The notes beneath the pieces were generated by a model that did no database searches, was not told the DNA's origin, and was given only the letters and a program-made list of their open reading frames with translations. A stretch of DNA of 64,000 nucleotides, taken from positions 283,819-347,818 of the forward strand of contig CAYPYS010000001.1 of NCBI GenBank assembly GCA_964415355.1, in the 5' to 3' direction. Each line of letters opens with the position of its first letter. Position 1 is the stretch's first letter. This DNA comes from an uncultured Planctomycetia bacterium. GTDB taxonomy: Bacteria > Omnitrophota > Gorgyraeia > Gorgyraeales > Gorgyraeaceae. Positions 12,001 to 42,000 of this stretch are shown here, in pieces. A program made the translations under genes and the position numbers.

Positions 12001-15000
12001 GAGAAGAGAAGAAAGAGTCATGAATAAGTACCAGACTTTTAGCATAGCTGGAGTTATGCCCTTTGTATTTACTAACACTGCTGTTAGAGTAAAAAAGATG
12101 ACTAGATTTACAGTCATGTGATAGGCTTTATCTCGCTTGTTCTCTATATCAGGGTTTAAGAAGAAGCTATATATAAAAGGTATCCTTGAAAGAAGTATCC
12201 AGGCTGTTATGAGTGAAAGCGCGAATAAGCCTGCGATAGCTCCTTCTAATCCTCCGAATGTTATGTAGCCTAGGTATGCAGAACCAGATACTGAGCCAAG
12301 GAATGTGGTTATAGCTCCTAATACCTTTGCTATAGTGGGTATCCTTCTACGCAGGAGGTGCCAATTAATGCTATAGTCTCTACTTGAGTCTTCACTAAAG
12401 GCTTCTTGTGTATTAAATAACTCTTTTAGGTGATTTTGTAACTTTTTTGCCTCTTCTAATATCTCAGGTGCTAATTCACCTCGTCTTTTGTGCTTATATA
12501 GCTCTAGTAAGGCTTTGAGCTTACTATCTATTAGAGATATCCTCTCTCCCTCCTCTTTATTTGCAGTCTCAGATGCTTTTTCTAAGAGATTATTTAATGC
12601 ACCTATACTGCGTGTTAGGTCTATACCTTTAGGAGACGAAAGGCCTTCTTTTATGAGGCTAAGGAGCTTTTTTGCCTCAGAGATATACTTTTCTGCTTCA
12701 GAGGTGGTTTTGTCTGAGGCCTGGGTAGTATCTGGCTGGGATTGGGTATTTTTTACAGGCTGAGCAGCTTCTCTTTCTTCGGCTATGTCATTCTGAGCTT
12801 CAAGAGGAAGTGCTTGAGGCTCTGCACTCTCTCTTTTGGGGAGATGGATGGGTGAGGGGCTGGTTTTTCTCCTTACCTTCCACATGCGGATCTCGATGAA
12901 GCCTCTGAGCTCTTCTAAGAGTTCTTTTGCTTGAGGCTCATCTAGCTTTCTTAGCTTTTCTAGTAAAGCTTCTCTCTCAGATTCATCTGCTACTTGGTGG
13001 TAATATAGGGCGAGCATGGCTTTCATATCGATATATCTGGAATCTATATCATCTAACAATGTCTGTATAATATTGACTTTTTCTTTTCGCTTAGATAATT
13101 TTGATATCTCAAGAAGCTTCTCTGTCGTGTTGCTAAAAATAGATTCTGGTGTTCCGCGTAGAAAACGGGAATCCTCTGACCACAGGACTATATTGCGTTT
13201 AAACTTTGAAACAACAAGTACAATATCAACTGCTATATCAAGAACCTTGTTTAGATTGCCGGGATCATTCCAACTTGTGAGTAACTTGCTGCGCATGGCA
13301 AACTCATCATATCTCAGATGAAAACAAGCTATGCTCATTGTAACCGGGTCTTCTTCGCATACAAAATTACTGAAATCTGCCACACTTGGCTTCTTAACGT
13401 GAGTTTGTCTGATGCGATCACGCATCTCATTTGCCAGTTTTACAGCTTCTCTATCAAATTCATCTGCATTGTCAGGCGCATTAATGTCCTCTTCCAAAAG
13501 CCTGCTGAAAACTAACGGGAGCGTCCTTCTTGCCAGCTCCAGCGCGCCGCGTATCTCAGCGCGCATGCGAGAATCTTCCGGATCCACTGCAATAGCAATG
13601 GTGACATTGTCGCACGGATATGCAAGCAGCCACAAGACAACTTGCTCTTCGTTAACCCCTATCCTAGCAATTGTCTCTGAAAAAATATCGCGGATAACAC
13701 TTAATATTATCCTGTCATCATTGAGCAACTTGTTAAAACGCCCCATCATCCTATCCACGTCAACATCAACAAAAATAATGTCCTGCTCGTTATCTATCCC
13801 GTCTTGTAATAATTTTGTTAATGCAACCCGGCCATACCTTAACTCGTCTTTTTGCTCTTCTTCTATTACCGTAATCTTTTTAGCAGCTACACCTGTGGGC
13901 AGTGCTAGGTTGAAGCTAGAATCCATATCAACTATCGGTTCCTCCGCGACCTCTATCATCACCTCTTCACCCTGATTCCTGGTTTCGTATTCAGCAGCTG
14001 CCTGCTCAGCCATTGCGAGGATTTTTTCGCGCTGCGCCGCAGGTACAACAAGCCGCAATGGACGAATAGTCAAATCTTCAACTATTCTTGTCTCAGGCAC
14101 AGTCTTTTCTAATACAGGTACATGATCGACATCCTGCGCTTTTTGATAGACCAGCCACACTGTCCTGTCGCCTGATATTTTATCTTTATATTGTAAAATA
14201 TCTTCGTCTCCTATGGCGCTACTCATTGTTCGAACCGTCTGCTCTCTTTCGTCTGCATTATAACTAACATCTCCTCCTTTTCCGTAACCAACAACTAGCG
14301 TACCGCCAGGCTTTAATATCTCGGCTGCTTTCTCAATAATCTTTATTTTCTTATTATGATCTACAAGACCGGAAGACAGCACTTTTCGCATAAGAACAGC
14401 ATCGACATCAGTAAGATCTGAATCAAGAAAATCGCCTTTTATGGCCACATTGGGGCAAAATTCCGGCACATAATTTTTTAAGAGTTCGGTCTCACTAACT
14501 CCTGGTTCATAAACCGTGACATTCGCGCCTTTTAGATCCGCAAGGAAAATAAATATCATGTCATAACCCGCTCCGACTTCTACAATATCCATCCCAGGCT
14601 TTACATCTAACTTATCAATAGCGCTAAGATAATCAGGGACTATATCAGAAAATTGGGCAACAAGGCGAGTTAGTTTACCCACAATATCTTTCGGTAATAT
14701 CGATTCAGCGTCAAAAATATTGATCAGCTCAGTGAAATAATTCTTTACATCTTGCACAAGTGGCTCGCTTAACTCTAAAAATATATCCTGATCTTCAGAC
14801 ATCATAGAAGTAGTCACATGTAGAAATAAAGCCGGAAGGCTCGGGACAAAACCATGAGTATGCGCCCTTGCCATGACATCATAAGATAGCATGCGAGTAG
14901 CATTAACAGAAGAAAGCGACTCAAGCACTTCCTCCTGGCTATTTTCATCCAGCTGCAAGAAGTCATAGACTTCCATAAGCCTGACCATGATCTCCTGAAA

Positions 15001-18000
15001 AACCATAGGCGCGCTAAGTTCAGCTTCTCTCGCGCTCAATAAAGCTCCTCTCTCGATTTTTGCACTTTGTAGGCCTAAAAGAGATATGGGAAAAGCTTGA
15101 ACAGTAATATTGTCATCTCCGCTTACCTTCAAAGTCTCAAGCGCGGCAACGATTTTATCCTCTCCTATCTTAGCACCCTCGCTTTTCCTGCGCGCTCTAT
15201 TTAGCTGCTCCAGGATCACCTTTGCCCGCTCCTCGTCTCCTGTGATTATGTCAAAAAGCCCGTGTTCGTCATAATGGCCAAAGTGATCTACCATCATAAG
15301 AAACCCATACTCCAACGTTCCTGCAGACTTAATATATTTATCTTTATCAGAAGGAAGTAAAAACCCATTAGGGTGAGAATGCGCAAAAAACCATATTAAA
15401 TAATGGCTATTACTCTTTATCATAATGCTAGGAGCTTTATCAGGTTCGCCTTTTGTAATAATCCATACCCCGCAATAGTTACGCAATCCTATTTCAAATG
15501 GCGCATCAATATCACTGATATCAGATAACAATTTATCTATAGCGTGAATCTGTTCTGTCATTTCTGACGCAGACATATTCAGTTGCCAATCCAAGACAAA
15601 AGAAGTTCCTGCTAAAATATTTTCATTAAGAATATGTCCTCTTATATCATTAATACTTCTAGCATAACCACTCAATACCTTACGCGCCTTTTCTAAGTGT
15701 CCTTTTCTTGCCAATATCTCAAAGATCGCAAAATCCCTCTGAAGGCGCCTCTGGTATTCTTCTAGTGATGCGCCTGGACCTATTCCCAGTGCCTCTTTTT
15801 CCAATATCCCAGCTATATCAGAATACGGATTAAGCACAAGTGCCTCAACAATATCTTCGACATCTATGCCGCTTATAACAATACCACGCTCAGATCCGCC
15901 TCTGAAAATTCCATGATTACCTCTTGCTAGGTGCCGTACGATCCTTTCCACCTCTTCTCTTTCCTGAGCCAGGATATGTTCTAAAAAATACTTGTATTCG
16001 TTAAGGTAAAGTTCTTTGTAAGAATATCTGTCATCGCTACTCAGCAGATTATCTATTGCCGATAAAATATTGTTTGCCAATTCAAGAATGTTATCCCGAG
16101 CCTCAGACTTTAAAAACCTCTTAAGCGCATCAATTGTCTCTTGAATAATTAACCTATCTGTAGAACTTTCGAGAACTTTAACCAGACTATGAATCCCGTC
16201 TGGATTGTTCGAATAACCAATAGCCCTGATTGCAGAACACTGTATGCGACAGTCTGAAGTTTCTAGGAAAGGCAGCACTCTATTTAAATCAGTCGGTTCT
16301 CCAAAAAACGATATATAACGCAAAGCCATAGAGCGAATATATTTATCATCATGCCCCAGCAAATCGGCCACTAACGGAGTTGCCTCTTTTATCTTAAGAG
16401 ACCTAAGCACAGAAATAGCGACGTATAACTGATCAACTGTAGCTTCTTTTGGTTTCTTTAAAATCTCGATCAAGGCATCTATGATCTCCCTCGACCCAAT
16501 GCTCCCAAGAACATGCGCAGCATCGGATCTTTTGTCTATTTTGCCTTTTAATAGATCTTCTAAGATTTGAGCATGCGTATTAAGTATCTCTAGGCTATTT
16601 TCAATAGGAAGAGTTACGCTTTCGTTTTCAGGGCTTTCAGGCATGTTTATTCCAAGCATATGACGCAATACTTCCTCTATCCTAGGATCATTAAAACAGC
16701 ATGACAGAAGAGCGATGTTTTCCTGTAGCACCCTGGTCTTTTCTCTTTTTTCTTCGGTTTGCCCAGATAACTGCCAGTAAAACTTGATCAAGGGTTCAAC
16801 AAAAGCAGCATGGTTAATATCCATATTCATAAAGGATTCAGCAAAAGCAGCACGGTTAATATTCTCCATACCAGTTAAGATTTTAATAAGTTCTTCTATG
16901 CGCCCTTCATCTTGAGGGACCTTCAGCTGACTGATAAACCAATTAATACTTCTCTCGTCACACTGCCTCGCCAATGCCACAGCTGCCGGCAAGGCAATAT
17001 CAATATCTTTTTTGAGCATTAGATCATGCAAACGTGTGCTGTCTACAACCATTGCTGTCTCTAATCCAGCATCTATTGGCATAAGAATATCATCCGCGAT
17101 TTCCTTTCCGAATACTGCCTTCATTTTCTGAATAAGGGCTGTTGGAAGATCTACTGCGCCGCGATAAAGCCGCGCAATCTCTTCTGCGACATTACCTACT
17201 ACCAGCGCAACGCCTTCTCTTGTGTCATCCTCGCGATTACTGTCATTCCTGTGTTCTTCATTGTCATTCTCGCAAAAGCGGGAATCCACTTTCCTCGCCA
17301 CGATATCGAGGAAAGGCGTAATAGCTCCAGTAACAGGATCCACCCACGCCCCGAGCATACCCATTGCCCAACGGGTGATGAGTCCAATAAAGCCATTGCG
17401 AGAAACCTCAGAAGATGAAACAGTATCTATAACAGTAAAAACTCCTACATTATGTGAAGCATTATCATCTATAATATCATCTTCTCGTTTAATAATAATA
17501 CCTTGTGAAGCCATTTCTTTTGCTATTTCTTCGACAATATCCACTCTTTTGAAATCTTCATCCGGCGTATTTGAAACCATTATAACAAGCTGGCCACCGT
17601 GCTCTAGGATTTCAAACGCCTTTCGGACCATCTTTTTCTGTACATCCAAAGGCACGACTCCATGAGGCCGAATCGGACTTATGATCCTCGACATAACCAC
17701 CATATTATATTTATGTCTAAAGCTGTACTTGGTCACATCAGCGCATTCATATGTAATACCAAGACCCGATCTCTTAGCAATATCACTTTTTAGACTTTTT
17801 ACACTTTCTGGGTCTATTTCAATACCTAAATATTGAGCTCCCATTGAATGAGCTACTATACCAGGAAGACTCACGACTCCAGGACCAAACTCTACTATTT
17901 TATCTCCTGGCACAATACCTAACTTCTTAAATAAACCGAAAATAAAACTCTCTCTAATGACAGGTGATAATTTTAAGTTTTCAGAAGCCGAGGAAGTGCC

Positions 18001-21000
18001 GAGCCTTACGGGCTCGACCAATCTCCTTTTAATCTCCCCAGCTAGCTCCTCCAGCGCCTCTTGCCGCTCGGTATTGAACTGTTCGAGAATCTCACGAGGA
18101 ATACTGTTCGAGCGAGGCGACTCCAAATCTGCTTCTCGACCTTGCTCGAAGAGGATTTGGAGTCGACGAGTCGAGAACCTATTCTGAATCTCTTCTATCT
18201 CACCCTGCAGCCACTTTGCAAATTGCCTAATCGGCTGCGGAACCGCTTCTATGCTAATTCTATCCCATGCTTCTCCATTCTTCTCGACAACCCTATAGAG
18301 AAATCCATTTTTACCAAAAACATCCTGATTCCTAAAATCAGTGTCTATATTTGCAACTAGCTCAAGTTTAATTCCTCTCGCATCTGCCTCCTGACTCAAA
18401 ATCCATTCTGCGGATTTTCCATAATATCCTGTCCTTGTATCGCTCGTTATAAAAATAGTCCCGCCAAGAGTTATGAAATCAAGTATTAAATTGATTATCG
18501 ATGTTTTTTCCTCTCTTGTAAAATGATAGTGGATGTCGGTGAATACATTTAACATTGAGATATGGCAAAATGAACTCTCTGACCACTGCTCTGATTCCGC
18601 AACCTCAAATATGCCTTTGCCTTTACCGTAAATCTTCACATCCAAATGTCTGTCTAAATAACTCTCTATGTGTTCTTTTAAGTCTTTTGTATTATCTATT
18701 ACGTCTTTGTCGGGATCCACAGCATGCACTTCAAGTCCTCTTATTGCATCGAATATTGGCAACAAGGAAGCGCCATATCCTATATGCAGCGACTTATCTC
18801 CTATTTGAAGCGTTCTGTCTAAAATTCTAAGAGATTCTTCACTTGCAGTGCTTGGTTTACGATCTGGTAATTTCTCCAGCACATCTAAAAATTCTCTCAA
18901 ACCTTCGCTATCCCCAACCACTAGCTCCCCTATCACCATTTCATATAACCCTGCCAGAGCAGCTGCTGTAATCTGCTTTCTGTTCACTATTGCATCATTT
19001 ATTAGTTCGATGACGCTACTTTGGTAATCTTCACCAGAATCTGCCTTTTCAGCCTCCATCATAATCAACTCAGCGTTTCCACCAAGAGACATCTCAAAAA
19101 ATGTGCCTTTGATAAGATCGCTAACAAGAGGTGTTGCAACCGGACGCCAAGACGGATCCAAAGTGATTTCAAGCCCAGAATGCTTCAATACCTCTACAAA
19201 ATCATTGAGCTCGTCATAAATATGCTCTGTAAGTACAACAAACTTGCCCGCAACGCCAAGTAACAGGCTCGTTGAACGTGCAATATCAGCTGTGAACATA
19301 TGAGGCTCTTTTGGCATGCTATCATTTGGCGGCATAGGCCCGATCATATATATCTCGTCAAATCTAATCTTATCTCCAACCAAACCAGCAAGCTCCTCAA
19401 CCTTCATTCTTATTGATATGACATCTTCCAAAACACCTACAGAAGGAGCAAATACAAACTTTCCTTGTTCTGGTTCAACCCCAATAATAAGCCAGCTGGA
19501 ACTATCTTTTCTTTTTATGTCCCTTATATTCAATAATTCTTTCCCTTGGCCTGCTCCGATACAAAGCGCGCATTTAATATATTGTCCTTCCTCAATTTTT
19601 CTACGCAAATCTTCAGATATAAACCCATTCACATCATTTGAAGATAAGGATCCCAAAAGTTTTACAACTTCCTGTGCAGTTTTGCCTCGACTGCTGTCAC
19701 CGTAATCTGCCTCTATGGCTGCCACGAGAGCCTCGAACTCGTGCTCACCTTCATACTTAGTCACACTGTTATCTGTGATTCGATAAACAATTCTGCGCCC
19801 TGATTTTACCTGATCACCATAAAATATAGATTCTGCAATAGCTCTTAAATCTCCAACATCTGACAAAGCGTCCTCTAGCATAACTGTATTAATTGTTACC
19901 TTCTCCCAACTAGAGGTTTTTAACAAAATAAAGAATCCGCTCAGTAAGAATTTTTCTGCAAGTATATCAACACCCTTACTAAATCCTTCAGCTGTAGAAT
20001 CACTGAATAAATAAACAGGCCTGCCTTTAAATTCGTTATCTTCTGGCATAGATTTTAGCAAACCCTGCGCATCCTTAATGAGGGGGTCTTCGCTAGTAGC
20101 GATCTTCGCCTCACTAGCACCTGCTTCAATCGGAACACCAGAAGGTACATTAATCTCAGTCTCTATCTGTACATCTGCAGCCTGCTGTATGAGCTCAAGA
20201 GCACCCATTGTATCTTGTTGCATCTTCTCAGCTCGCAATCGCAGAAGTCGCGCAACAGCATCCTCGGTGTCCTGCATAAAAATCAGAGATATACTAAGAT
20301 CTGTTTTTCTGATAAGATCTATAACATCCTCTTTTTCACACCATTCTGGATCATGTACTCTAAGTCCTTGATCCTGTAATACTTCTACAAATCTATCCAG
20401 AGCTTCATCCCACCATTTTTCTGTCAACAGTGTAAATTGACCTGTTTCAGATAGCAATCGTGCAATTGCTTCTGCAATTTCAGGTTTAAACATATGCTTT
20501 TGCGTGGTAGCTTCGTCTGGCGGCCAAGGACCAATCATATAAACTTCGTCAAATTTAATTCTATTCGTAACTAAGTCTGCAAATACTTCAAGGTTTAATT
20601 GACATGATACTATATCTTCAGGCATATCCCCGCTGATAAAAGTAAAACTCCTCTTAAAAATAGCTTGGTCTGGCTCAAGGCCAATAATAAACCATTTCTG
20701 GGCATCCTGATTGTTTTTCTTTAATTCTTTTAAATTTAACAATTCCTGACCTGAGCCAACGCCTATACAAAGAGCTAACTTGACATCTTCACCTTGCTCT
20801 ATAGCCTTTCGCAGATCTTCGGAAATATTGCCCTTCACCTTTTCCTCAGGCAATGTGGTAAGAAACTCCAGAAACGCATGCGCATAACCTCTATTTGCAG
20901 TCGTCTTCGTTGTATTCGATTTCGACAATACATCATCTGCAGGCACAAGTAAGCTCACCGCGCCATCATCGGCTACGGCCAAAGCTAACTCTGCCTGAGC

Positions 21001-24000
21001 CTCATCGCGCGTAACACCAGGAAAGTCTATTTCGAACTGGACCATGTCCTGGCCGTCTATAATTTCATTGCTCGCCCTGATCTCGCCATTCATTTTATGC
21101 AGTGATCTCTTTACAAATGGCAATGCAATGCCATGATTAAATTCAGGCCTTTTGTGGTCCAAGACAAACAACTGTTCCAGGTCTCCTTCTATCTTTCCAG
21201 GATTTAAGATAGTAAGACGACTATAAACTTTACCATCTCCTGGTTCCACTCTAGAAAGCCTTAGAGTTACTTTTCTTGATGTCTCTGGTATTGTAGATTT
21301 ATTGCTAATGATTGCATTAAAACCGTTCGAAACAAGACGTTCGATAATTAGATGGAGTAGCTGCAGATGTCCTGAGATCAAAGAAATATCTTCTCCTATG
21401 ATAATCTCAACAGGAGCGTCTTCCCACTTTGTCTCTAGGGCTATCTCTCCTCTCTCGATCTTGCCTAAGTAATCTATTAAATCTATAATTTCAATGTCAT
21501 GTAAAAAGCTCTCTTTCATAGAAGCTCTTATAACTTGGATATTTACTATCCATCGAGAAATTATATTGCGACATTTCTCGCTTGCTTCTTTCTGTGAGAC
21601 ATCTGATACAATAATAATCTGCAATGCTCTCCTTAGTTCTTCTTCTATATCATCTAGAATTTGTATAAAATCTTCTGCAAGCCCGTTAAGCTCAGCAATA
21701 GTTATTCCATCTCTATCCGACAGATGATCTTTGAATTCTCCTTCTAGTTTTTCCCAGTAAATACGTTGTAAATTTTCAATGCTTCCTGTTAAATCTAAAG
21801 TTGTATAGTCCTGTTGCCATTCTTCAAACTTACTAATTACAAGCTGCGCCAGATTTGCAAAAGCCAAAGGCCCGCCATGCCCCATTATAGCAACAGCTAT
21901 CTCCAGATCATCCCAGTGATAAAGAGTCTCTTCTCCCAATGCTGCCACATCTCTTTGCAACCGAATCAAATACATACCATCCTTGAATTCATATTTAAAG
22001 ACAGGTTCTCTAAGAGCTATTTTTAAATCACGATCTTGTGAAGACCCAAAGTTGCTGATTAGAATACTCCCCTGTCCCTGAAGCGTCTCTGCCATGGCAT
22101 TTAACATAGAACGATATACCGTCTCGGTTTCCATGAGACCTCCTTTATTGATGAGCTTATTGGCATATGTACTGTCAAATAGCCCTGAGGAGATTATCAG
22201 ATCCACGCTTCCTGGCTTGACCAGATCTTCATAACGAGCCAATTCCTGCACCACATCTCCGATAACAGTAATATTAGAGCCTCTGTTGGTTTCCCATCTG
22301 GGATTTACTACTATGACCTGTGAATCAGGAAATCTTTCAGCTACAGTTATAGGGATATTAGCTGTATCCGGCCCTACAAACATTATGGTCTTACCGTTAA
22401 GGTCTGTAATACCTAATACCTTATTTAAATACCTGCTTTCAATAATCGGCCAGGAACTTGATAAACTATCGATAGCAATAGAATGAAGGTTGTCATCTGG
22501 CAGGAATAACGACTTCAAATCTATCTGCTGGCCTTCTTTTACTTCAGCTCTTGACTTCACAAGCTGCAGGCCAGCTGCAAGAGTATAAAGGACATGTTGC
22601 TGTCGCTTCTCTGACTCAGGCACGCCGTTTGTGAGTAGAAAACGTATCTTGCTAAGTATGTTTTCGCCTACTCTCTTTACTAATCCTGGAAGTGCGCCTT
22701 TTTTTGCATCAAAGATAGCTATATCTTTTCCATCTGTTTTCGCAAAAGCGAGCTGTGTTTCTTGAGATAAATCATCTAAATCAACGAGCATCTTAGGTCC
22801 ATGCGCAGTATCGTCTTCGGAGATTGCTTTGTCGCCTGCGGCTCCTCGCAATAACACATCCTCTCCTGCAATGACACCTGGCCACGTCACCTGGATTTGC
22901 GCACAGGGAATACCAGTATCGAAAACTTCTTCCAGAAGCAGAGGTAAAATATCTTCTATTTCGCCTTCTGCCTTATCCACCCGGATACCTTTTGTATCCT
23001 GCAATCCATTTTCAAAAACATGCAGCCAGTATTTTTTTGCCTCGGGTAGATCACCGATCCCTTTTCTGGCAATAAGTCCGACAAACGGAATTAACGCATC
23101 TATCCCAAACTGCCTATACGCATCTCTTGAGTCCTCTATATAAGCAAACAAAGGCTCTATCGACTCTAACGGCAAGTCAATATATCTATTAACGACTTCT
23201 TCAAGCATAGCCTTTTTAAATTGCTGCAGCTGTTCGCCTCTGGTGTTTCCATAGTCCTCTGGTTTGCCTGGAAATAAGGATATTTTTTCTTTTTCTTTGC
23301 GCCATAACATAATACACAAAGGAAACAATATTTCCGTCAATGCATCTTTAAACGAATCTGGCAGGGCTTCTTCGCCGACTATGTCGAATAAGCGACTAAA
23401 CTCTTCGATGCGAGTGCGCGTGTAAGTTATCTTCCCAGGTTTAGCTTTAAGGTCTAATTCAGCCATGTACTCATACCAGCCTCCTGTCCGCGTTTTATCA
23501 ATAGTAAAACCATAATGCTCTAGAACCTGCTGCGCTTCGTGTATTGCAGCTTGTGATTCTATTCTTAAACCAGCGCCGAAAAGCTCTGCCTGGCACCCTT
23601 CAAATTCAGCCCCTATTTCTTTAAGCGCACTAAGAATTTCTATTAAAGAAAGCCTTATATCGTCTGCCTGCCTTGAAAAACCTACCGCAATTGCCCATTC
23701 ATTCGACTGAAAAAAATGCCCCATGTAAACATACTGTCGTCCTTGTATCTCTATTTTTGGGATGCAAAGTCCTAGGCAATTCTTCACTTCATCTGTAGAT
23801 ACTAAACTCAATGTGCCTGAATCATGGGGGACCAATACGCTATACCCGGCATTAACTTCTAATCCACTCGCTGTATGAAGAATAGAAACTATCTCTACTG
23901 ATGCTTGTCCGCGAACTTGAGCATGGGATAATAAGATAAACTCTGTTTCCGGAAGGAGCCTTTGTAGTTCTGAAGTCAATCCAGGATTATTTAAAGTAAC

Positions 24001-30000: not shown

Positions 30001-33000
30001 AATTTTAGGTCTTTTTGTAATGCCGAATCTACGAAAGATCTTAGTTACATAAGCTGCTGAACCAGTTGCCGTTAATTGCGCATAATCAAAGCTGTCAGCT
30101 TTCCAAACCGTATCTGCATAATGCAGTGCATAAGCCATCAGAATAGTGCCAATTCCCTGATTCCTAGACCCAGAAGCAACAGCCAAACTCGCAAGAAGAA
30201 CAGTTGTATCTTCCTTAGATATATAGACGAAAGCTATTACATCTCCGTTATCATCCTTATAAACCCAATAAGGTGTAGCAGAAGGGTTTATAATTATTTT
30301 AGGGCAGGTTGAAGCAGCCAGATAAATCAGGAGATTGAGTTCATTAATCACATCAACATCTTCATTGGTCGCTGGCTCAATACGCTCCCACATTGCCTTT
30401 GAGAAAACATGTCTTCTCCCAAAAATCGTCACCTCAATTGTCTCATCCTCTTGTACTCCTCCTCCAAATCCAGCAGCTGGAACTATTTCTATTTGGTTTC
30501 GAAGCTTCTCACAAAGTCCTAAGACTTTGTGATCTGCATGAGCATCACTAAAAGTAATAGCAGCCATCAGACTATTCCATGAAGGAAAATTCCATGCTTT
30601 CACTAAATCCTCTTGAGTCTCACCAAAACGCTTCAGCAAGACAAATGTACCTGCCCATTCAAAAACCATCTCGATCTGAGACGTAGACCTTGTATAGTAT
30701 ATTCTGGCTGTTCTTATACCAATCAGAAAACGTCTAAACCTAGTAGGATCTTTATTTAATTCTTCACGCGTTACTTCTAATAATGGAAGCAATTTTCCTC
30801 CTTTCGCCTGATCAGGAGTAGGCACTTCTTCTGAAATAGCACGATAGAGTGCCCAAAAAGCCTTTTCTCTGGGAGTCTTCTTGTTGCCTACGTGGTTCTC
30901 TAAAGCCTTTAATAGACCCCCGTGCGGACGTTTCTCTGAGGCATAACCCAAAGTATTGGCTAATTTCTTTCTATCGCTAAATCCTCTTACAAAAGCTAGG
31001 GCCCATTTTTCAAAACCAGGCCAATCAATAACTTCTTGGCTTATGAAGTATATCCCCAGCCATGTCTCAAAAAGTTCAGGTTTTTCCATTACACCTTTCA
31101 ATGTCACATCTGCTTCACCAGAAAATTCTTGTGCACGCTCATAAGTCTGTACTTTTATTAAAGCTTCGTGAAGCGTCTCTCTGGCTGAGATGATTTTTTG
31201 ATCATGAGTTCCCTTAGCTTCAAAACGACTAATAAGCGACCTGAGGCTACGAAATCCCCATATCTTTATTGTCAGATATTCTAGCTTTATATTTGTCCCC
31301 TTTATTTTTTCTATTTCTAACGTAGCCCACTTTAATACCTCTATTGGCTCTAGGCGTAGTCGTCTCGGCCAGAGCTCATAAAGTTCTTTGGCTCTTTTTA
31401 GTTCTCCTCTTACTGATATATACCATTCAGTCCATTCAAAAAATGACCTCTTGCCTCGTTTAAGATCTACAACTGTTGGCGCTTTACCTTCAGCTATTAT
31501 CTTAAACAGAATCTTTAATACCTCATATGCGTGCTCATCGTCATTATTTTTTGCATACTCATTGCAGGATTCAGTCAGACGACGGCTAATGATATTCATA
31601 GGAGGGGTTTCACCTTGTTCAAAAATACCCAGCTTGACTACAATACGCGCCGTACCAAGATCTTGCTCTGCCATCTCTATAACCTGAGCGACTACTGCAT
31701 TAAGACTTTCTTTGGGTAAATAATATAATTTCTTTTCTTGAGGGTAGTCAGGCGCCGCATCAGCTGAATCTTTGGGCATCTCTATAGGTGGCTCAGGTGT
31801 TTCGCTAGGCGTATGAGGAGGCTCACCGTTTTCACAAACCTTGTTAACTATTCTGTGTAACTCATAAAAACGCTTTACAACGTCAGGATGGCTAGGTTTA
31901 ATTTGCAATCTATTAATCAATCCAGCAGTTGTCCTGAAACTCCTATGCCCCCATCTGTCTAGTCTTATCTCAGGCCTTTGCGCTTCTTCTATAAAATAAT
32001 CCAGCACCTCTAAAGGCCTGTCACGAAGACAGACAAGCCAGATATTATAAATACGCTGACGATAAGAATCTGGAACATTTTCAAGAATAGATGCCGTATT
32101 GCTAAGCCAATCATTAACCCACGATCTAAACGTAATATCCATTTGCTTTCCCTCTTCAAGCTCGGAACGCGATAAGCCCAGACCTGGCCCTATAATAATT
32201 CTAACTACTGCTCTTAACGCAATATAACACTCCCCAACATCAGGATCTTTAATTTGAAAATGTCTTTGAGATCCCGTTATTTTGTTTATAATGCCTCTTT
32301 TCTTATCTGTACATTCTAATTCTCCAGGCTGAATAATACCTGCTGCTATAGCAATCTCCTCTATCCCCTTGTTCTCCTCAGCCATTGCAACAATCTTTTT
32401 GATAACCTTATCAAAATCATCATCTGTTAATTTATAAGGTTTAGACTTAATGTGACCAGCGGGATCTGGAGCTCCAGCTCGTATAGATCTTCCAAACTCT
32501 ATATTAGCCAGTTTTATATCTTTAATACCTGCCTCGTCAAATGCTTCTTGATCTATCAGCTCAGCCCAGCCTCTAGCAATAATTCCAATAGCGCTTCTGT
32601 ATTCTCTCCTTTTCACCCAAGAGTCTACCGCTAAAAGCCATAAGGTAAAGGCATTAAGAAGCTGCTCCCTAGAAAATTGCTGCATCCCGACTCTCCGATA
32701 AATCTCCAAAGTCTCTTCATACCCACCAGGCCTCTCTTCTAGGCTAAATTCAAAATCTGAATCCCATCTCGTAGTTATTCTGGCTATCTCCATATCCATT
32801 TTTGCAGTATAGTAAAGATCATTTTTCATCACAGGAAATATTATCACATTGCCTGTATCAGTACATCTCAGTAAATATATCTTTTTTCCTTCAGATAATA
32901 CAAAGAGGGCTTCTAGGAAATTTTCTGCTTCCTTGCCTTTACTTATCCCAAAATGATCTATAGCCTCTTGAACTGTAAACCATGCCCGTCCAAAGTGCTC

Positions 33001-36000
33001 CCCTATCTTCTCAAAACTTTTCTGATATATCTCGGGAGAAACTTTCTCCTTGTCAGGCTTTGGTGTCTTCACCATCATCACAAACGCGCCGACGGCAAGA
33101 AGTTCTTCTATTATGTCTATTAAAAACATGATCCCTTGTTCTATAAGAGGAAATATATAACGTTCCAGGAAGACATGGTGGAGAATAAAAGTTAATACTG
33201 TAATTGCTAAAGCTAGCCCAGCTCCTTGAGCTCTGAGCCTGCCTGCTTCTGCAATGTCTCCCTGTTCCTTTTTATCTTTAAACTCATCTCCTACAGACAG
33301 AAATTTACTAGTTACCCCAATTAAAACTGCTGTGACTAACAAGATAAATAACACATCCCAGACAATATCAGGAGAAGGCCCTGCCTGGATAAACTGTGGC
33401 AAACTTAACATTTCAACAATGTTGACATTGTCAAAGAAAAGGTTTACTTGGTTGGCAAAATAAAAAAGTGGCAGAGGTATGATACAGCGCATCCTTGATC
33501 TGTCGAATAAAGATGATACAACAAGCGCCAACAAAAGAAGTACGCTTATTAACAATAAAACTTCTTTGGGTAAATTTAGAAAACGATCCGTCGCTAGCTT
33601 GCTTCCGGTTATAATCCTGTCGACGCCCTCTGGTGTTACCGTAGGAATAATTGGTGACGGTGTTACAACCGGCCCTCCAAAAATCCCTTCACCCAGGCCG
33701 CTTATAATAGAAAGAGGCGCGGAGATACATGACATTAATAATTCATCGACAGCTTGCCTGATTCTGGAATCTTGTTTTTTCCTGCGCCTAACATTAGTAA
33801 TACCTACTTCGAGCGCTTTAGCCACATCTGTCGTACTAATCCTCTTTCGCCCATTATTTCTTAGTTTCGATGCTATAACTTCTACATTCCTATGTCCAAA
33901 ATGTCCGTCTGCATTCCTTCCTTGTCCTTTTTTAAATCCTTCTTTGTCTAAAAATTCTGACAAGCGACCCTCTGATAGTCGTATAGCTCTCATAACATCA
34001 TTTGTGCCAACGCCTAATCTGTTAGCTAAATTCCTGCTGGTCTTTCTATGAATTTTCCAATAGGCTCCTGTTGCTGCTTCGCGCACTTCACTCTCACTAA
34101 GATCAACAGCTGCTTTACGCGAACAACTTACAACCATCATAGGGATAACAATGTTAAAGTGTATACTTAAAGATTGCTTCGCACCTATGGCACTCGCAAT
34201 GACAGAATACAATGCAATAAGGGCGATTATAGCTAACAATAGGAGGATAAGCTTTGCTCTGGAGAAAGCTAAGCTTGGTTTCTTTTCTTCCCCTTTATTT
34301 CCATTTAATAAACCATCAAGCAATTCTCGGATTCTGTGATCTTTTTTCGTCTTTACCCATAAAGTCGAACTATTAACTCCGAGTACAGAAGCTACATCTT
34401 TCTGTGTAATATTTGATTTCCGTGTAGCACCTGAGCTTCTCGTTCCTCTTAAATATTTTATAGCAGCCGCGACATTTCTATGTCCATAATGTTTTTTATT
34501 CCCAACTGCCGAACCTGTTACAAAATTCTTTTCTCCTAAAAATTCTACTAAGCCGGGCTTGGACCTCATAATAGCACTCTGAACATCATCTTTGCCAACG
34601 CCTAATCGATTGGCTAAGTTCCTAATATTCTTTTTTCTAAACAACCAATATATACCTCCTGCTGCCTTACGCACTTCACTCTCACTAAGATCAACAGCGA
34701 AGTTTGTACGGTTAGACCCTGCCACAAAGTCCTTGTCTGTTGTATCTACCTTTAATATAAGTTTTCTGCCATCACCTGAAACTCTTGTTGCGTGGTAAGA
34801 AACCGGCTTTTTACCATCAGGAATAAATACAAATATCTCCTTAGCAGCCGTTTCAAGCCTAACATCTGACGCCAAGATAGCCTGTGCCTTCTGTAAATTT
34901 ATTGCGCCTTCAGATATATCATCCAAAACAAGTCCATTCTCTATCAATAGAGTTATTACATCGATCCTTGCCTCATCCATGATCTCAACAAGCACGCTAA
35001 CAAGGCAATTCTCTAGCAGTAAATTGTTAATATGGTACCCAAATGCCTGGTTTGCCTTCAGGTATTCTTCTCTGTCCTTACCTTTATAGTCGACTTCTCT
35101 TCCACCGAGCTTTTCTATAAGCTCCATGAACTCTACTCTTTCTTCAAAGACATATAGGATGCGTTTATTTTTACCCTGGATTATATGCTCTACGGCTGCT
35201 TTTCCTAAGAGACTGCACATGGCCATGTCAACTTCAGAAGTATCAGCTGACCTATAGAGATAATCTATCTTTCCAGCCTCTCTGACTTTTATACCTGCAG
35301 ACTCGCATAGATGGCTTATGATGGCTGTAGTGATACGTCCTGCATCCTTTAGTTTTGGATGTCCAAAGCCGTCGACTTTTCCTTCAGCCTGCTGAAAAGC
35401 CATTCCTGCAACTTCGTCTTTACTAAAGGCGTTTCTCAATACTTCTTCATTATTGGCAAAGCCCTTGTCTATCTTTACGCCTTCCGAAACGATCACTATT
35501 GCGTAGCCGTAATCCTTATAGTAAGCCAAGAGGTCTTTTCCTAGCATTTCAAGGTCAAGGTCTTCTTTTTCAGGTATAAGGGCAAAGGCTACATTGGCTC
35601 TTGCGCCTATAGCCATGGGTGCAAAACCAGCGTTTCTCCCAAATACCTCTATTACCAGGATATAGCCAGTAGAGGAGGCATCTATTATTGCGTTCTCTAC
35701 GCCTAGCGTGCCTGCTTTGACAAAGCTGTCATAGCCATAGGTAGAAGCCCCATGAGGAAGGGCAATGTCATTATCCATGGTCTTGGGAAGGCCTATGATT
35801 AAAAATTCAGGAAGTATCTCTTGTAACCTGTAGGATGCTCCATTAGTGTCGTCTCCTCCGCAGGTTATAAGGCCGTCTAGCTTTAAGACCTCAGTAATAT
35901 TTTTTCCGATAAGTTCGGGTATACCGCCTTCGATGTTCTTCTCGCTAAATGGATTAAACCTGGATGTGCCAATGATAGTAGCTCCTTTTGTGCGGTGCAG

Positions 36001-39000
36001 TTCTGCTTCTTCCAGCGTAATAGGAGCTGCTTTTCCTAAAAGTTCCTCATCTGCCAGGCCTTTCCAGCCGTTCCTTATTCCGATTATTTCTATGTTGCCT
36101 TCATCATGTGCTCTTTTTACAGCTGAATATATGACCTCATTGTGGCCTGAGGCAGGTCCGCCTCCTGTGAGGATACCGATCCTTTTTGTTGGTGAGACTG
36201 TGCCGGCAAATAGAGCCACCCCTATTCCGTAAGTATACATTTCAACATTGTTAGATTGTGAAGTTAAGAGTTCTAAGGGAATAGATATGAATGCATCATT
36301 GAATGTGGATAAAAGAGCAGTGACAAGAATTGCTATGCAGAGCAGAATAAGGACTGTCCAACGTGGCGAACCTCGCGGAGATTTATTGTTTCTCCAACCC
36401 TTTGATCCAAAAAGACCGAGGAACATAAATGCGTATGCGAGAGATTGCTTCACACCTGCGGTATTCGCAATGACGTCGTGTTTATACATCGCGATCAGGG
36501 ACACGCTATCGAACAAATTAGCAAACGGTACAAGAAACTCAAGAAGCTCTGGATATATATCTATCGCGATCGGTAATGCATAAGAAGTGGCTCCCCACAT
36601 GGTCCACGCAGACTGAACTGACATTGCGATGAGGCCAAAGATCGACGTTTGTCCAGCAAAGCCTTGGCGTAAAATAATGCTGCAAATTAATAATCCATAC
36701 AAGATCGCAAATATAATAATAAAACTAATCGGATTAGCAATTAATCTAAGGGATATCCTATTGAAAATCGTGTCGATAATAGGCTGTTTCTTATCGGCAG
36801 ATCTATTTTCTAAGCTGTCTTTAACTTTTCTTAGTATCTCAATTGAATCGCACATAGACTCTGTAAGAATTATACACCGAGGTGGCGCATCCATATCAAA
36901 GATATATCTCGTCACGGTCTCCAATCTTCTAAGATCTTCTATATCTAGCTCCTTCCCTAAAGCCCTGAACTCTACACCTTTTAAAGCGGTGTCTCCTAAC
37001 ATAGTTCTTATATTAACTAGAGTATCCTCTGCGCACTCTGCCTCTCCTGCAAGAAGAACAACGGGAATATTGCCTCTGTCTTTGCCTAGTTTTAGCAAGG
37101 CTTCACTAAAACGAGAAGGATATTCAATAACGTCTTTATCTGTGAATAGAACTGGAGTTTCTTTCAAAGTAGAAAGATTCACTGAGTAACTTCTAAATAA
37201 CATTAAAAAATCTTTGGTAAGTGCCATAGGATCTTCTATCATCTCTCTGCAAGCTGGGTATAGCATTAATAAATCTTCAGTAAAATCTCCTGGCCTAGCA
37301 GCTATCCACTTATCTAATTTATCCAATGTTACCCACTTCACAGCATGCACTTCTTCGTTTGGATAGATCTTCCCGTCAAATCTAGCAAAGGCAATATGCA
37401 TTGGCACATATTCACTCTTAAAACCAGAACCGTCTTTCTTTAAACGTTGCGAGATAAAACTCATTGGTGTACCAAAAATTCTAAAATCTACATCGCTATC
37501 CCTAACCTTTCTCTCATTTCGTAATTCTTCTATAAATTCCCTGGGTACTGTTACTTCAAGAGATTCTCCGCTTATAGAATGACCTGCAAAAGATATATCC
37601 CAAAGACTAGGATTATCCTTAGTTGAAGCGCGTTGCTGAAGAAGTACCTGTCCTTTTGAATTTGATACAAAACATTTCATATGCTTGTTTAATAGACCCA
37701 ACTCATGGATTATTTTTCTGGGAAGACTACCCATGTATATTATTCTCCCATTACCATCCTTTTCAAAATAATCTAGGATCTCGATTCTTTGTCTTAACTC
37801 TAATAGCATCTGAGTAAAGTCAGATTCTTCTTTATGTCTACTTACTATATCTAAAATTATTTCAAGTTCTCCTACTATCTTTCCATTTTCCTGATAATAA
37901 ACAATTAATGCATCTAATATTTTTATAACTATATTAAAATTAATATCATATAGTTCTCTATTATATAAAACATCGATTAGGCGAGCATAGGCTTCCAAAA
38001 ATCTCTCCTGCTTGCCATGCATAAGACCCGTTAGAAGATTCATTGTAGCAGAAGATGCTGAATCAAAATGCTTGGGTATCCCAGTAAGCATAGAACGAGC
38101 TTCTTTTTTTATTAAAGCTGTGACATTAAGATCTCTTTCTGCAGTGCTCCTATCATGGCGCACCACCCAATCAAACAACTCCAAATTCTCTTCTAAGACT
38201 TCAGATCTATCATTAACTATAGTTATCACATCACTTAAATCAGATATACTTGTCAAGTAGTCTACTATAAAATCAGCTCCTTTTAGTAGTCGCTTAGCAA
38301 TCTTTGTTCTGTTGCTCAATCTCTCTCCAAGGGTTTCTTCGAGAGCACCTACAATAGAAGCCTTATCTAAATCTTGAACTCCTTCTGGTGATACAGGCAT
38401 AATAAAAGCTACTCTTGCATGAGGAAAACTCTTCTTTAAAATTTTAACATGTTCTATAGAAGCCATATGAAATAGCAAGATCTTGCCTTCTCTAGTAAGC
38501 TTATCGAGCTCTTTCTTCTCAGATGCATAGTCGTCTCCGTAGATTTCCCATTGTACATCAAACTCCCCTCGATCTTTTTTCGCCTCAAACTCTGCTCTAG
38601 TTACACATTTTTTATCGTCTCCTGGGCCACGATAAGGTCGCGTTGTCCAGCGCGTAGGACATACCACTTCATCTGGATATTGTCCCTCTAAAAAATTCAT
38701 AAGAGTACTTTTGCCTGCGCCAGAAGAACCTGCCACAGCAATAACAGTCTGCCTTGTCACTTCTTGACCTATATCATTATATTTTTTGTAGATTTGATGT
38801 AATAAGAAAAGACCTATGCCTATTATAGCTAACATAATCTCGTAACTTAACACTTTAATGTTGTTGAAATGTAAAATTAGGGTGAGGACAGCGCCTATCC
38901 ATGCAAAGATAAAACCTACAAAGATCAGAGAGCCCTCTTTGTCGCTTCCTATCTGTATTTTTAGTATCTCTTTTTCTGATAACTCAGGATTCTTCTGATG

Positions 39001-42000
39001 CAGGAGTTCATGTTCAAACACTATATTCTGTGCCCATTTAGGGAGATAACCATAGGCGGGATGATATTGGATAGTATCAGTAGTTTTATCATATGAGGCT
39101 ATTGCAGTACTATAATATGCTATGAATCTCGGAGGGCCTCTTTTCTTTATTGTATCTATTATAAAGGCAAGATATATTGCAAAAAATAACATGAGAAATT
39201 TCACGGCCTTTGCAAACTTAAGGTTAGTAAGGGCTATCCATGCTCCCTGTAAGGCAACCTTAGGAGACATAGTACTCTGTAAATTAGCAGGCAATGTCTC
39301 TGTACGAAGCGCATCTCTCCTTGAAATGCTCAAGGCCAATTTTTCTGCCCTTGATGGCATCTCTTCAAACGTTAAAAGCTCTGATAATATCCAAGCGTCC
39401 CACTCTCCTGGAACAGGCTCTGAAAAACCGAGACGGTTCTTTACATCATCTAATAACCAGCTAAGAAAACGGGTCAATTCTTCCGCGGACATTCCCCTGT
39501 CTTTAAAATCCTTATAAGCCCGTTTAGCGATAGGCAATAATAACTCTAAGGATGTATTTTTATGATGCCGCAGCCATCTCTGGATATCCAAATCGGCTTC
39601 CAAGATGCCATGACTGCGATACCACGTAAACCTCCCACTTGCACGCCAATAGTCCAATCTGCTTCCTACAGGCAGCCCTGTATTAAGCCACTTTTTAGTT
39701 TCGGCGTCATGCTCACCAAGCTCCCAGAGCGACCATTCAATTAGTCTGGCCATTCTTTCTTCGCTCTTGATCTGTGCCTTTTTACGGGCAATCAAAAGAT
39801 CTTCTAAGGAGATCTTTTCTCCTATCAGCTCCTCGATGCTGACATAGGGCTTTTCCATTACAATCACGCCAGCCCCTGGCTGATGGAACCATCGTCTATC
39901 AGACCAGCGATAAGAAGCGTCAAAAAAGAGAAATCCTTCCCGTTGCAAAGAATCCACCCATTGCTCGATTGCCTTGAATTCAAACGGAAACGGCATAGGG
40001 CATTCATTGACAATAATATTGACATACCAATCACTGAAAGCCAAAAAGAGGTTTTTCTGCTCACGATTTAAAGCTAGGAATAAGTCACGCAACTCTGGAA
40101 ATTCAGGGTCGCTACCCACAGTAATAAGCATGGAGTAGCTGTCTTCGAATAGCATTAATAGTCCCCCTTGTTTTAAAATGCGCTTATTTTCCTCTACAAA
40201 GGAACTGAAAAATCTTTCTTCTACATGATGCATAACAGTATGTTGTATTACTACATGGACTTCTCCATCTCTAAAAGGCAAGCTAGTAGGATCAGTCTGA
40301 TGACAAAAACTTACTCTCTCGCCTTGGTATGGTTCATTAACTCCCATGTCACAGCCTATAACCCTAAGCCACGGCCTGCCTCTGACCATCTCCCTTCCAA
40401 GAAGATTCTTGCCCGCCCCTATATCAGCAACAACTACATCCTCGCCTGTATGGTCGTAAAGCGCATCGATATATGGCATGACTAACTCTAAAGTAGGTTC
40501 GAACTTATTCCCGCCCTGGCGATAGAGTCTGTAGGCTTCTTGAAATTTAACATCTGTCTTAAAGCGAATGACTTTATCATAAAGAACCTCTTGCGCTTTT
40601 ACAGGATCATTTGCATGTTCTCCCAAAGTATCTATGATCCTCTCGGCTAGGTCAGAGGGAAGTTTGTATCGCGAATATCTAAGTGTTAGTAGCCCTAATA
40701 TTACTTCTCTTACTTCCAAATCCTCTAAGGCTATAAGAGGATTCCAAGCTAATGGAAATTGATTTTCTTTAATAGCGACTGCACCTAAAGCTTTAGTTAA
40801 TAGATTCTTCCACGGTGGACTGCGCGGAGAATCACTGTTTCGCGAGTCTTGTGATCCGAAAAGGCCTAAGAGCATAAGAACAGGGCCTATAAGAGATTGC
40901 TTAACCTCTGTGGCGGTCGCGATGGAGGCAGTAGAGGCAAATATACCTGATCTCCCCAACATCTGAATAAGGTATATTAACATTAACGAAATAGAAAATG
41001 GATTAACGATCCACATCATAAAACCATCCCGGAACCTTGGATATCTCCAGGTAATCCTGCCTTCTGTAATAGGACGTCCCATAGGAGAAGTCGCTGTTAT
41101 TTCTCCCTCTACAGAGCCTTCTCGTATGTCTAAATGGCATATCCTGATCACTGTTAGGAAATGAATTAACGCGACAATAGAAAATATCCAATAACTGGCT
41201 GTAAGAAATGTAAGATCAAGGACATCAAAGGAAGTGACAAAAATCCACGCAGCAACACCTAATATAACAAATATACCTGTTGTCCATTGCATCCATCTGC
41301 GATATTCTCTTTGAGCTCTAATAGCTGTATTCTGATAACCGCGTTCTGCAACCTCAGGTCCCATATTGGAAAAAGGATCATCTGAGTCAGGTTGTTCTAT
41401 AATTTCTGGCATAGGCCTGAAGAAATCAAGCCACCACGCAGTCCCAATACCAATGCCAATACAATAAGCTATAAAAAAAGCCTTAAGCCCTGCATGTCCT
41501 ATGTTCAATAGTGCATTTTGATTTATAGAGTACAAGACCCATGAAACCCATGCCCCTATGAATAGATACCATAACAGCCTATAGAAATTCAGCATTCGCC
41601 TGTTTATAGAGTCATCATCGGAAACCGTGCCTATAAAGATAAGGAAAGAACTGGAGAGTACAGAAAAGGAAGACATGTCAGAGACTATTCCTGGCGGGGC
41701 ACGGCCGGCAAATATGCTTCGAGCAAAGTCGAGGAAGTGCCGAGATGTCCCGGCGAGGCCAATCTTTGTGCCATCAAATACCAAAGGCAGCCAGTCTACA
41801 TTTTCCTGGAGCGTCATAAAAAACCAGCCAATGCCAAAGGCAGCTACTATGATAACAATCAATCCGATTGCAATAGCCCATAGGCTAAATTCTCTATTTT
41901 TTGCTTTAGATAGATCAACATCTCTTGCAACATGTTCGTTAGCAGCTCTACGCTCTCCTGTCTGAGCCTTCTTTGTCACGCTCCTAGCCCACATAGCTAA

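Follow-up and report, generated by a model that had tools for sequence, protein, structure and literature searches.

Eight class I methyltransferase-fold domains along a giant open reading frame from an uncultured Omnitrophota bacterium

This analysis concerns a stretch of 64,000 nucleotides (nt; the window) of contig CAYPYS010000001.1 (positions 283,819 to 347,818, forward strand) in assembly GCA_964415355.1, from an uncultured bacterium assigned to the Omnitrophota by GTDB, and the single giant open reading frame (ORF) that fills it. Within the one polypeptide encoded there we found eight domains with the fold of class I S-adenosylmethionine (SAM)-dependent methyltransferases (MTases), designated S1 to S8 and mostly unrelated by sequence. 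We consider it probable that the window is part of a membrane-stitched, multi-enzyme giant protein of the Omnitrophota type and that the eight MTase-fold domains are independent modules acquired through accretion and shuffling of domains. The multi-enzyme giants of Omnitrophota have been recognized only recently, and their function is unexplained.

The ORF lies on the minus strand (1..63999; first codon, nt 63999-63997) and contains no stop codon across the entire window, compared with 530 to 1,905 stop codons in the other five frames. It comprises 21,333 codons, is open at both ends, and holds strong Pfam domains in frame (Pkinase, 182 bits; PFK, 153 bits); on the plus strand, no ORF of more than 465 amino acids (aa) was present anywhere in the window. 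The product of the minus-strand ORF is longer than 21,333 aa, and the window is an internal fragment of a single giant gene. Residue i of the ORF begins at nt 64002-3i, domain order is counted from the N-terminal side, and all features described below are encoded on the minus strand. A preliminary description of this DNA had flagged six MTase-like sites in one frame of one polypeptide; these do share a single stop-free frame, but the polypeptide, which had been taken to extend over 13950-40480, spans the entire window.

Motifs, profiles, and models of the methyltransferase-fold segments

The earlier count of at least six class I MTase-like domains was raised to eight by Pfam, profile, and structure evidence, the eight segments being the six flagged sites and two added ones at ~20.8 kb (S4) and ~19.6 kb (S5). 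A compound pattern, consisting of motif I (h-x-h-G-x-G) followed by the acidic residue of beta-2 and then by a beta-5 motif (xG-x-h-x-h), had exactly seven matches in 21,333 aa, at nt 40428, 29700, 20772, 19566, 18789, 17895, and 14583, corresponding to S1, S2, and S4 to S8. Over 300 rounds of local shuffling, the sequence gave 0.16 matches on average and never more than 2, although the pattern was fitted post hoc to the same segments, so that the shuffle test is not independent of them and the specificity of the pattern tells more than the shuffle count. Of the six sites at which motif I had been proposed, five match the compound pattern; at the sixth (S3, 22.4 kb) the loop is a degenerate VGPDT and the fold was recognized by modeling. 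The literal form of the motif given at the time, hhDhGxGxG, has no match at all when h is V, I, L, M, F, A, or C: S2 (VMDWGCGDG) alone comes close, and S4 and S5 carry GxGxG without the Asp. A GxG or GxGxG loop together with an Asp or Glu at the end of beta-2 is retained in seven of the eight segments, S3 being the exception. The full GxGxG is found in S2, S4, and S5, and GxG alone in S1, S6, S7, and S8. The acidic residue, which in this fold contacts the ribose and had been proposed earlier as a check for each domain, was found at the beta-2 ends of S1 (GCD), S2 (LSE), S4 (GLE), S5 (GVE), S6 (AVD), S7 (GIE), and S8 (VYE), and is replaced by Asn in S3.

Pfam scans were run on overlapping 1000-aa chunks of the ORF. 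As to the HMMER check suggested beforehand, only S1 and S7 passed the curated cut-offs, and the other flagged segments gave subthreshold matches or no Pfam MTase match. The subthreshold matches of S2, S4, and S8 were nearly all to MTase families; S3, S5, and S6 had no Pfam MTase match. For none of the eight segments was an NAD(P)-Rossmann family the leading match, and the few dehydrogenase matches were weak NCBIfam ones, ranked low for S1 and S7, both of which pass Pfam. A permissive Pfam rescan of the region yielded no additional MTase-like signals. Pairwise blastp comparison of the six flagged segments stayed at noise level except for S7 and S8 (27% identity, E = 4e-4), in line with the mutual divergence claimed for them. 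A hidden Markov model (HMM) built from S1, S2, S7, and S8 recovered S3 alone, and weakly (i-E = 0.012), with motif I of S2 misaligned by MAFFT; an iterative HMM search seeded with a strong MTase domain of P0013, one of the relatives described below, recruited nothing from the ORF.

S1 (39820..40602; aa 7800-8060; motif I, VVADIGAG; beta-2 end, VIGCD) is located in a loop between clusters of transmembrane (TM) segments and exceeded the cut-offs of Methyltransf_11 (37.1 bits; cut-off, 21.2; aa 7,857-7,949) and Methyltransf_25 (28.9 bits; cut-off, 27). S7 (17320..18072; aa 15310-15560; motif I, IVEFGPG; beta-2 end, LGIEID) did so for MTS (27.4 bits; cut-off, 23) and Methyltransf_11 (22.4 bits; cut-off, 21.2), with the Pfam match at aa ~15,366-15,477. 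In S8 (14020..14772; aa 16410-16660; motif I, IVEVGAG; beta-2 end, TVYEP), 10 of 11 weak Pfam matches around aa 16,467-16,572 were to MTase families (E = 2.8e-4 to 0.05), all below cut-off, and hhalign against a reference alignment, built from MTase domains verified by Pfam, gave a probability of 95% (E = 2.8e-8). S2 (29170..29877; aa 11375-11610; motif I, VMDWGCGDG; beta-2 end, IGLSE), which immediately precedes the first of the protein kinase domains, was assigned from subthreshold Pfam matches and hhalign: MTase families accounted for six of its seven weak Pfam matches (best, Methyltransf_31, E = 0.0075; all below cut-off) and for three of its four NCBIfam matches, and it aligned by hhalign with the S3 family from beta-3 to beta-5 (E = 8.5e-5; 83 columns) and with the S4/S5 family over motif I (E = 1.3e-4). 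No homologue of S2 was found in the word-indexed protein search.

S4 (20140..20922; aa 14360-14620; motif I, CIGVGSGQELLN; beta-2 end, IIGLEP) is NpmA/TrmB-like and matched Methyltransf_4 (E = 0.0016; positions 6-137 of the 173 in the profile). In relative P0015, the homologue of S4 matched NpmA (E = 2.3e-6) and five other MTase families, and the one in P0013 matched Methyltransf_9. S5 (18940..19722; aa 14760-15020; motif I, CIGAGQGKELLN; beta-2 end, IIGVEP) is a paralogue of S4 (40% identity over 232 aa, E = 8e-52, also visible in the self-comparison of the ORF); it had no family-library match of its own, and its relatives are the same two proteins. Across the 28-44%-identical sequences of the S4/S5 family alignment (A2), G.G.G..LLN, G.EP, and FDE are invariant.

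For S6 (18100..18942; aa 15020-15300; beta-2 end, HAVDPD), the preliminary description had been right about the presence of a domain and less so about its position, motif I (LHIGYGAS) lying at 18.79 kb (nt ~18789) and not at 18.6 kb; a GKGKG at 18.63 kb falls further downstream in S6, about at beta-3 of its model. Both NCBIfam matches of S6 were weak and both were to MTases (PrmA, E = 0.0064; BchM), and hhalign against the reference MTase alignment gave 109 in-register columns (E = 2.5e-4). The sole relative of S6, P0022, has a weak full-length Methyltransf_12 match. An AlphaFold2 model from the resulting two-sequence alignment reached a predicted local distance difference test score (pLDDT) of 61 and a predicted TM-score (pTM) of 0.61, with beta-1 unresolved; of the 50 best Foldseek matches of this model in the PDB, 49 were class I MTases, METTL5 at the top (E = 2.8e-4) and METTL16 and Trm5b also among them. 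A word-indexed protein search with S6 gave no match, and a metagenome scan with the S6 alignment gave none.

The case in which only one or two segments score as MTases and the remainder are generic Rossmann or NAD-binding folds, named in the preliminary description as the one that would undo its claim, was not what we found, there being MTase-specific support for every segment. The families nearest to S1, S2, and S4 to S8 are mainly rRNA and tRNA base MTases (NpmA, TrmB, RsmA/MTS, and METTL5/16), along with generic small-molecule or protein MTases. Since seven domains keep the canonical residues of the cofactor site, catalysis is favored over use as a structural module; each of these domains, with its intact GxG loop and acidic residue, is predicted to bind SAM and to methylate a different substrate. 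Standard domain searches thus undercount the enzyme content of such a protein, with two MTase domains at Pfam thresholds versus eight by profile and structure methods.

S3 and the distribution of Pfam-less domain types

S3 (21910..22512; aa 13830-14030) is an MTase fold without a Pfam match, with the loop VGPDT and Asn at the end of beta-2. Two alignments of its family were made, one of 8 sequences (A1, used for the AlphaFold2 model) and one of 15 sequences. In the larger set, the loop follows VG[APSTI]x[TS]; 13 sequences have Asn at the end of beta-2 and 2 have Asp, and all 15 share FSSGLF after beta-4. The model (pLDDT, 80.9; pTM, 0.82) has the order beta1-alpha-beta2-beta3-alpha-beta4-alpha-beta5-alpha-beta6-beta7, and all of its 50 best Foldseek matches in the PDB were class I SAM MTases (E = 1.4e-7 to 1.5e-5; TM-score, ~0.5), including FtsJ2, NovO, TrmB, MnmM, and METTL21. 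In a search of PDB sequences with the S3 family profile, the tRNA MTase Trm14 ranked first (E = 0.0014); single-sequence PDB searches with S2, S3, and S6 were uninformative. The seven-stranded sheet of class I MTases closes with a beta-6/beta-7 hairpin, which sets the fold apart from NAD(P)-Rossmann ones. The terminal beta-6/beta-7 pair was seen in DSSP for both modeled domains, S3 (confident) and S6 (weaker), the strand pairing in these models being deduced from DSSP order and structural neighbors rather than from inspection of coordinates. Comparison of the S3, S4/S5, and S6 families with one another by hhalign was not significant, and the S3 and S4/S5 families gave short local matches only against a shallow reference MTase alignment (A4). 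Because the pocket residues of S3 are conserved across its family, they point to a constrained ligand site and not to a decayed pocket, and S3 may well bind SAM or a related ligand through this altered but conserved pocket. The conserved noncanonical pocket also leaves room for a structural-module reading, for S3 alone.

When 1.84 billion representatives were searched exhaustively by HMMER with a 1,200-aa stretch as the query, 23 proteins of at most 7,979 aa were found, at 25-45% identity. Eight of them aligned to S3 and two to S4, and most alignments fell in the HATPase_c-like region that separates the two segments (20989..21921; aa 14027-14337; weak HATPase_c match at aa 14,213-14,325, E = 0.0017). 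Each relative shares one domain or a short adjoining stretch with the ORF, and there is no wider collinearity. Where relatives carried a source name, five of seven were partial proteins of metagenome-assembled genomes (MAGs) of Candidatus Omnitrophota, and Omnitrophota MAGs are the main source of the closest relatives of the S3, S4/S5, and HATPase-like modules. Seven loci with an S3-type domain lie in Omnitrophota MAGs (n = 4) and in MAGs labeled uncultured Planctomycetales (n = 3), within stop-free stretches, the shortest of 1,493 aa (an entire 4.5-kb contig) and the longest of over 6,805 aa. The modules occur in varied combinations in the relatives: GNAT with an S4-like domain, HEAT, and Methyltransf_25; HAD with an S6-like domain; glucosamine isomerase with an S3-like domain and Methyltransf_31; and an S3-like domain with HATPase_c_2. 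Domains of the S3, S4/S5, and S6 types are thereby shown to occur also in other very long ORFs, and the definition of these three Pfam-less types is the most useful by-product of the analysis. Close-relative scans of genome and metagenome collections with aa 14360-15560 gave no match, and a word-indexed protein search with a 2,900-aa stretch returned nothing, a search that random word matches may have swamped.

Two of the relatives recall the arrangement in the ORF over more than one domain. A single blastp alignment to the Omnitrophota protein P0015 runs from the HATPase-like region into the first part of S4 (aa 14,207-14,527 versus 300-592; E = 1.5e-13), which hints at a conserved two-domain HATPase-MTase module. 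In P0013 (3,663 aa), GNAT, an S4-type domain, HEAT, and a methyltransferase follow one another in loosely the same order as in aa 11,242-16,572 of the ORF; this likeness could be a coincidence, as the S4-type domain alone is detectably similar in sequence.

Other domains and composition of the window

No Pfam match at E <= 0.01, besides a spurious Erf4, was found in the N-terminal ~4,700 residues (nt 49,900-63,999), which include highly charged, Glu/Arg-rich, coiled-coil-like stretches, e.g., around aa 3,990. A TM-rich region follows (aa ~4,780-7,600), with bPH_2 and with weak, protease-like matches to Rce1-like/CPBP and M50/DUF3267. A crude hydropathy scan of the whole ORF (Kyte-Doolittle; 19-residue window; threshold, >=1.9) gave 59 candidate TM helices, which are clustered, and the TM-free stretch at aa ~10,300-17,250 contains S2 to S8. 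A segment of ~60-80 aa is present four times (aa 5,982-6,060, 6,368-6,449, 7,653-7,734, and 9,149-9,231), at 39-56% identity and beside TM clusters; this repeated segment (window ~36,300-46,100) may be a membrane-proximal linker or anchor module.

Downstream of S1, a guanylate kinase (38344-38745; Guanylate_kin, 39.4 bits), a NUDIX domain (37276-37674; 45.4 bits), and a phosphofructokinase (35182-36183; PFK, 152.8 bits) occupy aa 8,419-9,606 (nt 35182..38745), with TM segments between them by the same scan. The next group (27058..30276) sets acetyl-, methyl-, and phospho-transferase domains side by side: a GNAT acetyltransferase (30100-30276; aa 11,242-11,300; Acetyltransf_1, 34.1 bits), S2, and two Ser/Thr protein kinases (Pkinase, 182.3 bits with two stretches; Pfam range, aa 11,612-12,314), the first at 28330-29166 (aa 11,608-11,890) and the second at 27058-27867 (aa 12,045-12,314). 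The two kinase domains are paralogues with 28-35% identity, and their duplication is visible in the self-comparison of the ORF. A Pfam HATPase_c domain lies at aa 12,908-13,053, and HEAT repeats separate S7 from S8 (16255..16530; aa ~15,824-15,915; HEAT_2, 52.1 and 45.8 bits).

Toward the C-terminal side, a MraZ-like (SpoVT/AbrB-type) segment (~8,700-8,900; aa 18,372-18,412) scored 24.9 bits against a Pfam cut-off of 23; it sits within a TM-rich part of the ORF, an odd location for a DNA-binding fold. Nucleotides 1-6800 (aa ~19,080-20,930) encode two HD_4 domains, a RelA_SpoT domain (alarmone synthetase type), and the N-terminal domain of a phosphoribosyl pyrophosphate (PRPP) synthetase in Pfam. 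Taken with the guanylate kinase and NUDIX domains upstream, these domains suggest a theme of nucleotide or (p)ppGpp (guanosine penta- or tetraphosphate) metabolism.

GC content ranges from 0.37 to 0.46 along the window and GC skew is negative, both uniformly so. The AT skew of the plus strand falls to -0.33 at window positions 10,000-12,000 (elsewhere, ~-0.05) and becomes positive over the part that encodes the TM-rich region (42-46 kb); these changes look like shifts in amino acid composition and not like gene boundaries. The window had no match in Rfam and none by megablast to phage and plasmid records, and its tandem repeats are trivial ones, none favoring misassembly. An alternative genetic code was considered and dropped, the minus-strand frame being without a stop codon of any kind.

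Proposed organization, alternatives, and known systems

In the organization that we favor, the MTase-fold modules would have been collected by accretion and by shuffling of domains among giant proteins, and one local duplication would have given S4 and S5, with S4 to S7 now standing in tandem. The seven canonical domains would act as SAM-dependent enzymes, and S3 would hold its ligand in the remodeled pocket. All would operate tethered to a membrane, beside the acetyltransferase, kinase, HATPase, and nucleotide-metabolism domains; tether and scaffold would be provided by the TM segments and HEAT repeats. Because the domains need SAM, ATP, GTP, and acetyl-CoA, they should face a cytoplasm, and the compartment supplying SAM, ATP, and acetyl-CoA would be that of the cell itself or of a host.

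Several points weigh against this organization. Six of the eight domains fall below curated Pfam thresholds, S3 is without the GxGxG loop, and the acidic residue is missing from most members of its family. The S6 model is of low-to-moderate confidence, with Foldseek TM-scores of just ~0.4, and S2 is without a detectable homologue, its support coming from subthreshold Pfam matches and hhalign at 54-60% probability. The membrane topology was judged by the crude hydropathy scan alone. The link to Omnitrophota was drawn from distant single-domain relatives (25-44% identity), the window holding no other gene, and the window has no SecA_DEAD, glycosyl-hydrolase, or glycosyl-transferase domain of the kind usual in published giants. 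SAM binding, catalysis, expression, and a product in one piece are themselves predictions from the sequence.

The main competing explanation is that most of the MTase-like domains are pseudo-methyltransferases, the fold being reused as a structural or ligand-binding module in a giant scaffold. The low Pfam scores would fit this, as would the GxG in place of GxGxG in S1, S6, S7, and S8 and the S3 family, which has no GxGxG and in which 13 of 15 sequences have Asn at the acidic position. We nevertheless regard it as unlikely: seven of the eight domains hold the GxG loop and the acidic residue at the correct spacing, the pocket residues of the S4/S5 family are invariant among sequences that have otherwise diverged to 28-44% identity, and even the unusual S3 pocket is conserved, with FSSGLF and VG invariant and N or D at the beta-2 end. 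We consider quite unlikely, but worth stating, a more specific proposal in which S3-type domains (VG[APSTI]x[TS] ... V[ND]P ... FSSGLF) form a new MTase-fold family, restricted to giant proteins of Omnitrophota and the Planctomycetes-Verrucomicrobia-Chlamydiae (PVC) group and with another ligand or chemistry, and S4 to S7 with the HATPase domain form a coordinated methylation line for one substrate. If this were true, the S4-S5-S6-S7 array, with the HATPase-like domain just upstream, would be a multistep line working on a single macromolecule and not a set of unrelated enzymes. The conserved altered cofactor pocket of S3 is directly testable.

It is highly unlikely, in our judgment, that the ORF does not represent one working polypeptide and is instead an assembly chimera, a pseudogene-like read-through, or a polyprotein cleaved into separate enzymes. 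Neither a start nor a stop lies within the window, weak protease-like domains (Rce1-like/CPBP and M50/DUF3267) are found in its TM-rich part, and C39 peptidase domains and possible proteolytic processing have been noted in published giants (bioRxiv 10.1101/2023.11.21.568195). A chimera, however, is unlikely to leave 21,333 codons free of stops in one frame, composition and skew are uniform, misassembly-prone repeats are lacking, and ORFs of this kind have been obtained independently from many genomes, long-read complete genomes included (bioRxiv 10.64898/2026.06.07.730766). Processing into separate enzymes would be compatible with the multi-enzyme organization proposed above and would not contradict it. 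Least probable of all, and largely refuted, is the reading of S1 to S8 as one or two real MTases, the others being chance motif matches or generic Rossmann or NAD(P)-binding domains. The passing of Pfam gathering thresholds by S1 and S7 alone and the noise-level similarity among the flagged segments other than S7/S8 would be expected from it. It is opposed by the seven compound-motif matches against 0.16 expected, by the lack of any segment led by an NAD(P)-binding family, and by the weak matches of S2, S4, S6, and S8, which are mainly to MTases (S3 and S5 having no informative ones); the S3 and S6 models, moreover, resemble almost exclusively class I MTases and include the beta-6/beta-7 pair.

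Class I SAM MTases (Methyltransf_11/25/31/12, MTS, Methyltransf_4 [TrmB], and NpmA) share with these segments the order of motif I, beta-2 acidic residue, and beta-5, and share with S3 and S6 the order of strands and helices with the terminal beta-6/beta-7 pair. They are normally free-standing proteins of 200-400 aa, unlike the eight highly divergent copies within one giant chain described here. Polyketide synthase and nonribosomal peptide synthetase (PKS/NRPS) megasynthases are also very long polypeptides and can hold several class I MTase domains. Assignment to this group was rejected, as no ketosynthase, acyltransferase, carrier-protein, condensation, or adenylation domain was found in the ORF, which, unlike a megasynthase, has no modular repeat structure in self-comparison and has many TM segments.

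The closest parallel is with the giant proteins of Omnitrophota. West-Roberts et al. (2023; bioRxiv 10.1101/2023.11.21.568195) described giants of this phylum ("Archaeovorin" type) with many TM regions, HEAT, methyltransferases, SAM-dependent methylases, and NUDIX, and with one RNA methyltransferase domain in the set that was visible by structure prediction only. In the catalogue of 916 proteins of at least 10,000 aa compiled by Nielsen and Lui (2026; bioRxiv 10.64898/2026.06.07.730766), "Module 1" comprises the PF08241 methyltransferase (137 of the 916 proteins), HATPase_c, GNAT, HAD, and HD, and the "class 1 multi-enzyme metabolic clusters" combine scattered methyltransferase, NUDIX, and kinase domains with HEAT scaffolding; a Pfam family is repeated at least twice in 65% of the Pfam-positive long proteins, and 80% of the sequence clusters are singletons. 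The ORF resembles these giants in exceeding 10,000 aa, in its many TM segments and HEAT repeats, in its scattered methyltransferase (PF08241), HATPase_c, GNAT, NUDIX, HD, and kinase domains, in its largely unique sequence, in the repetition of Pfam families within one polypeptide, and in having some domains visible by structure prediction only. At more than 21,333 aa it is above the length used by Nielsen and Lui; West-Roberts et al. apply the term giant from 30,000 aa upward, and both ends of the ORF are open. It differs in that no SecA_DEAD, C39 peptidase, glycosyl-transferase, glycosyl-hydrolase, or dockerin domain lies within its 21,333 aa. A divergent SecA_DEAD helicase domain is found in most full-length Omnitrophota giants, the genes of which are flanked by type II/IV secretion-like genes; no chunk of the ORF matched SecA at E <= 0.01, and the domain, which could lie beyond the window, may still be part of the protein. 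The published accounts, as far as they were consulted, report no single protein with eight MTase-fold domains, four of them in tandem. The preliminary description had seen no conventional precedent for so many methyltransferase folds in one protein, but Omnitrophota giants with scattered MTase domains are published, and since multiple MTase domains in giant proteins are already on record, no concept is overturned. The ORF fits the published description of the Omnitrophota giants, and its eightfold MTase content is striking but precedented.

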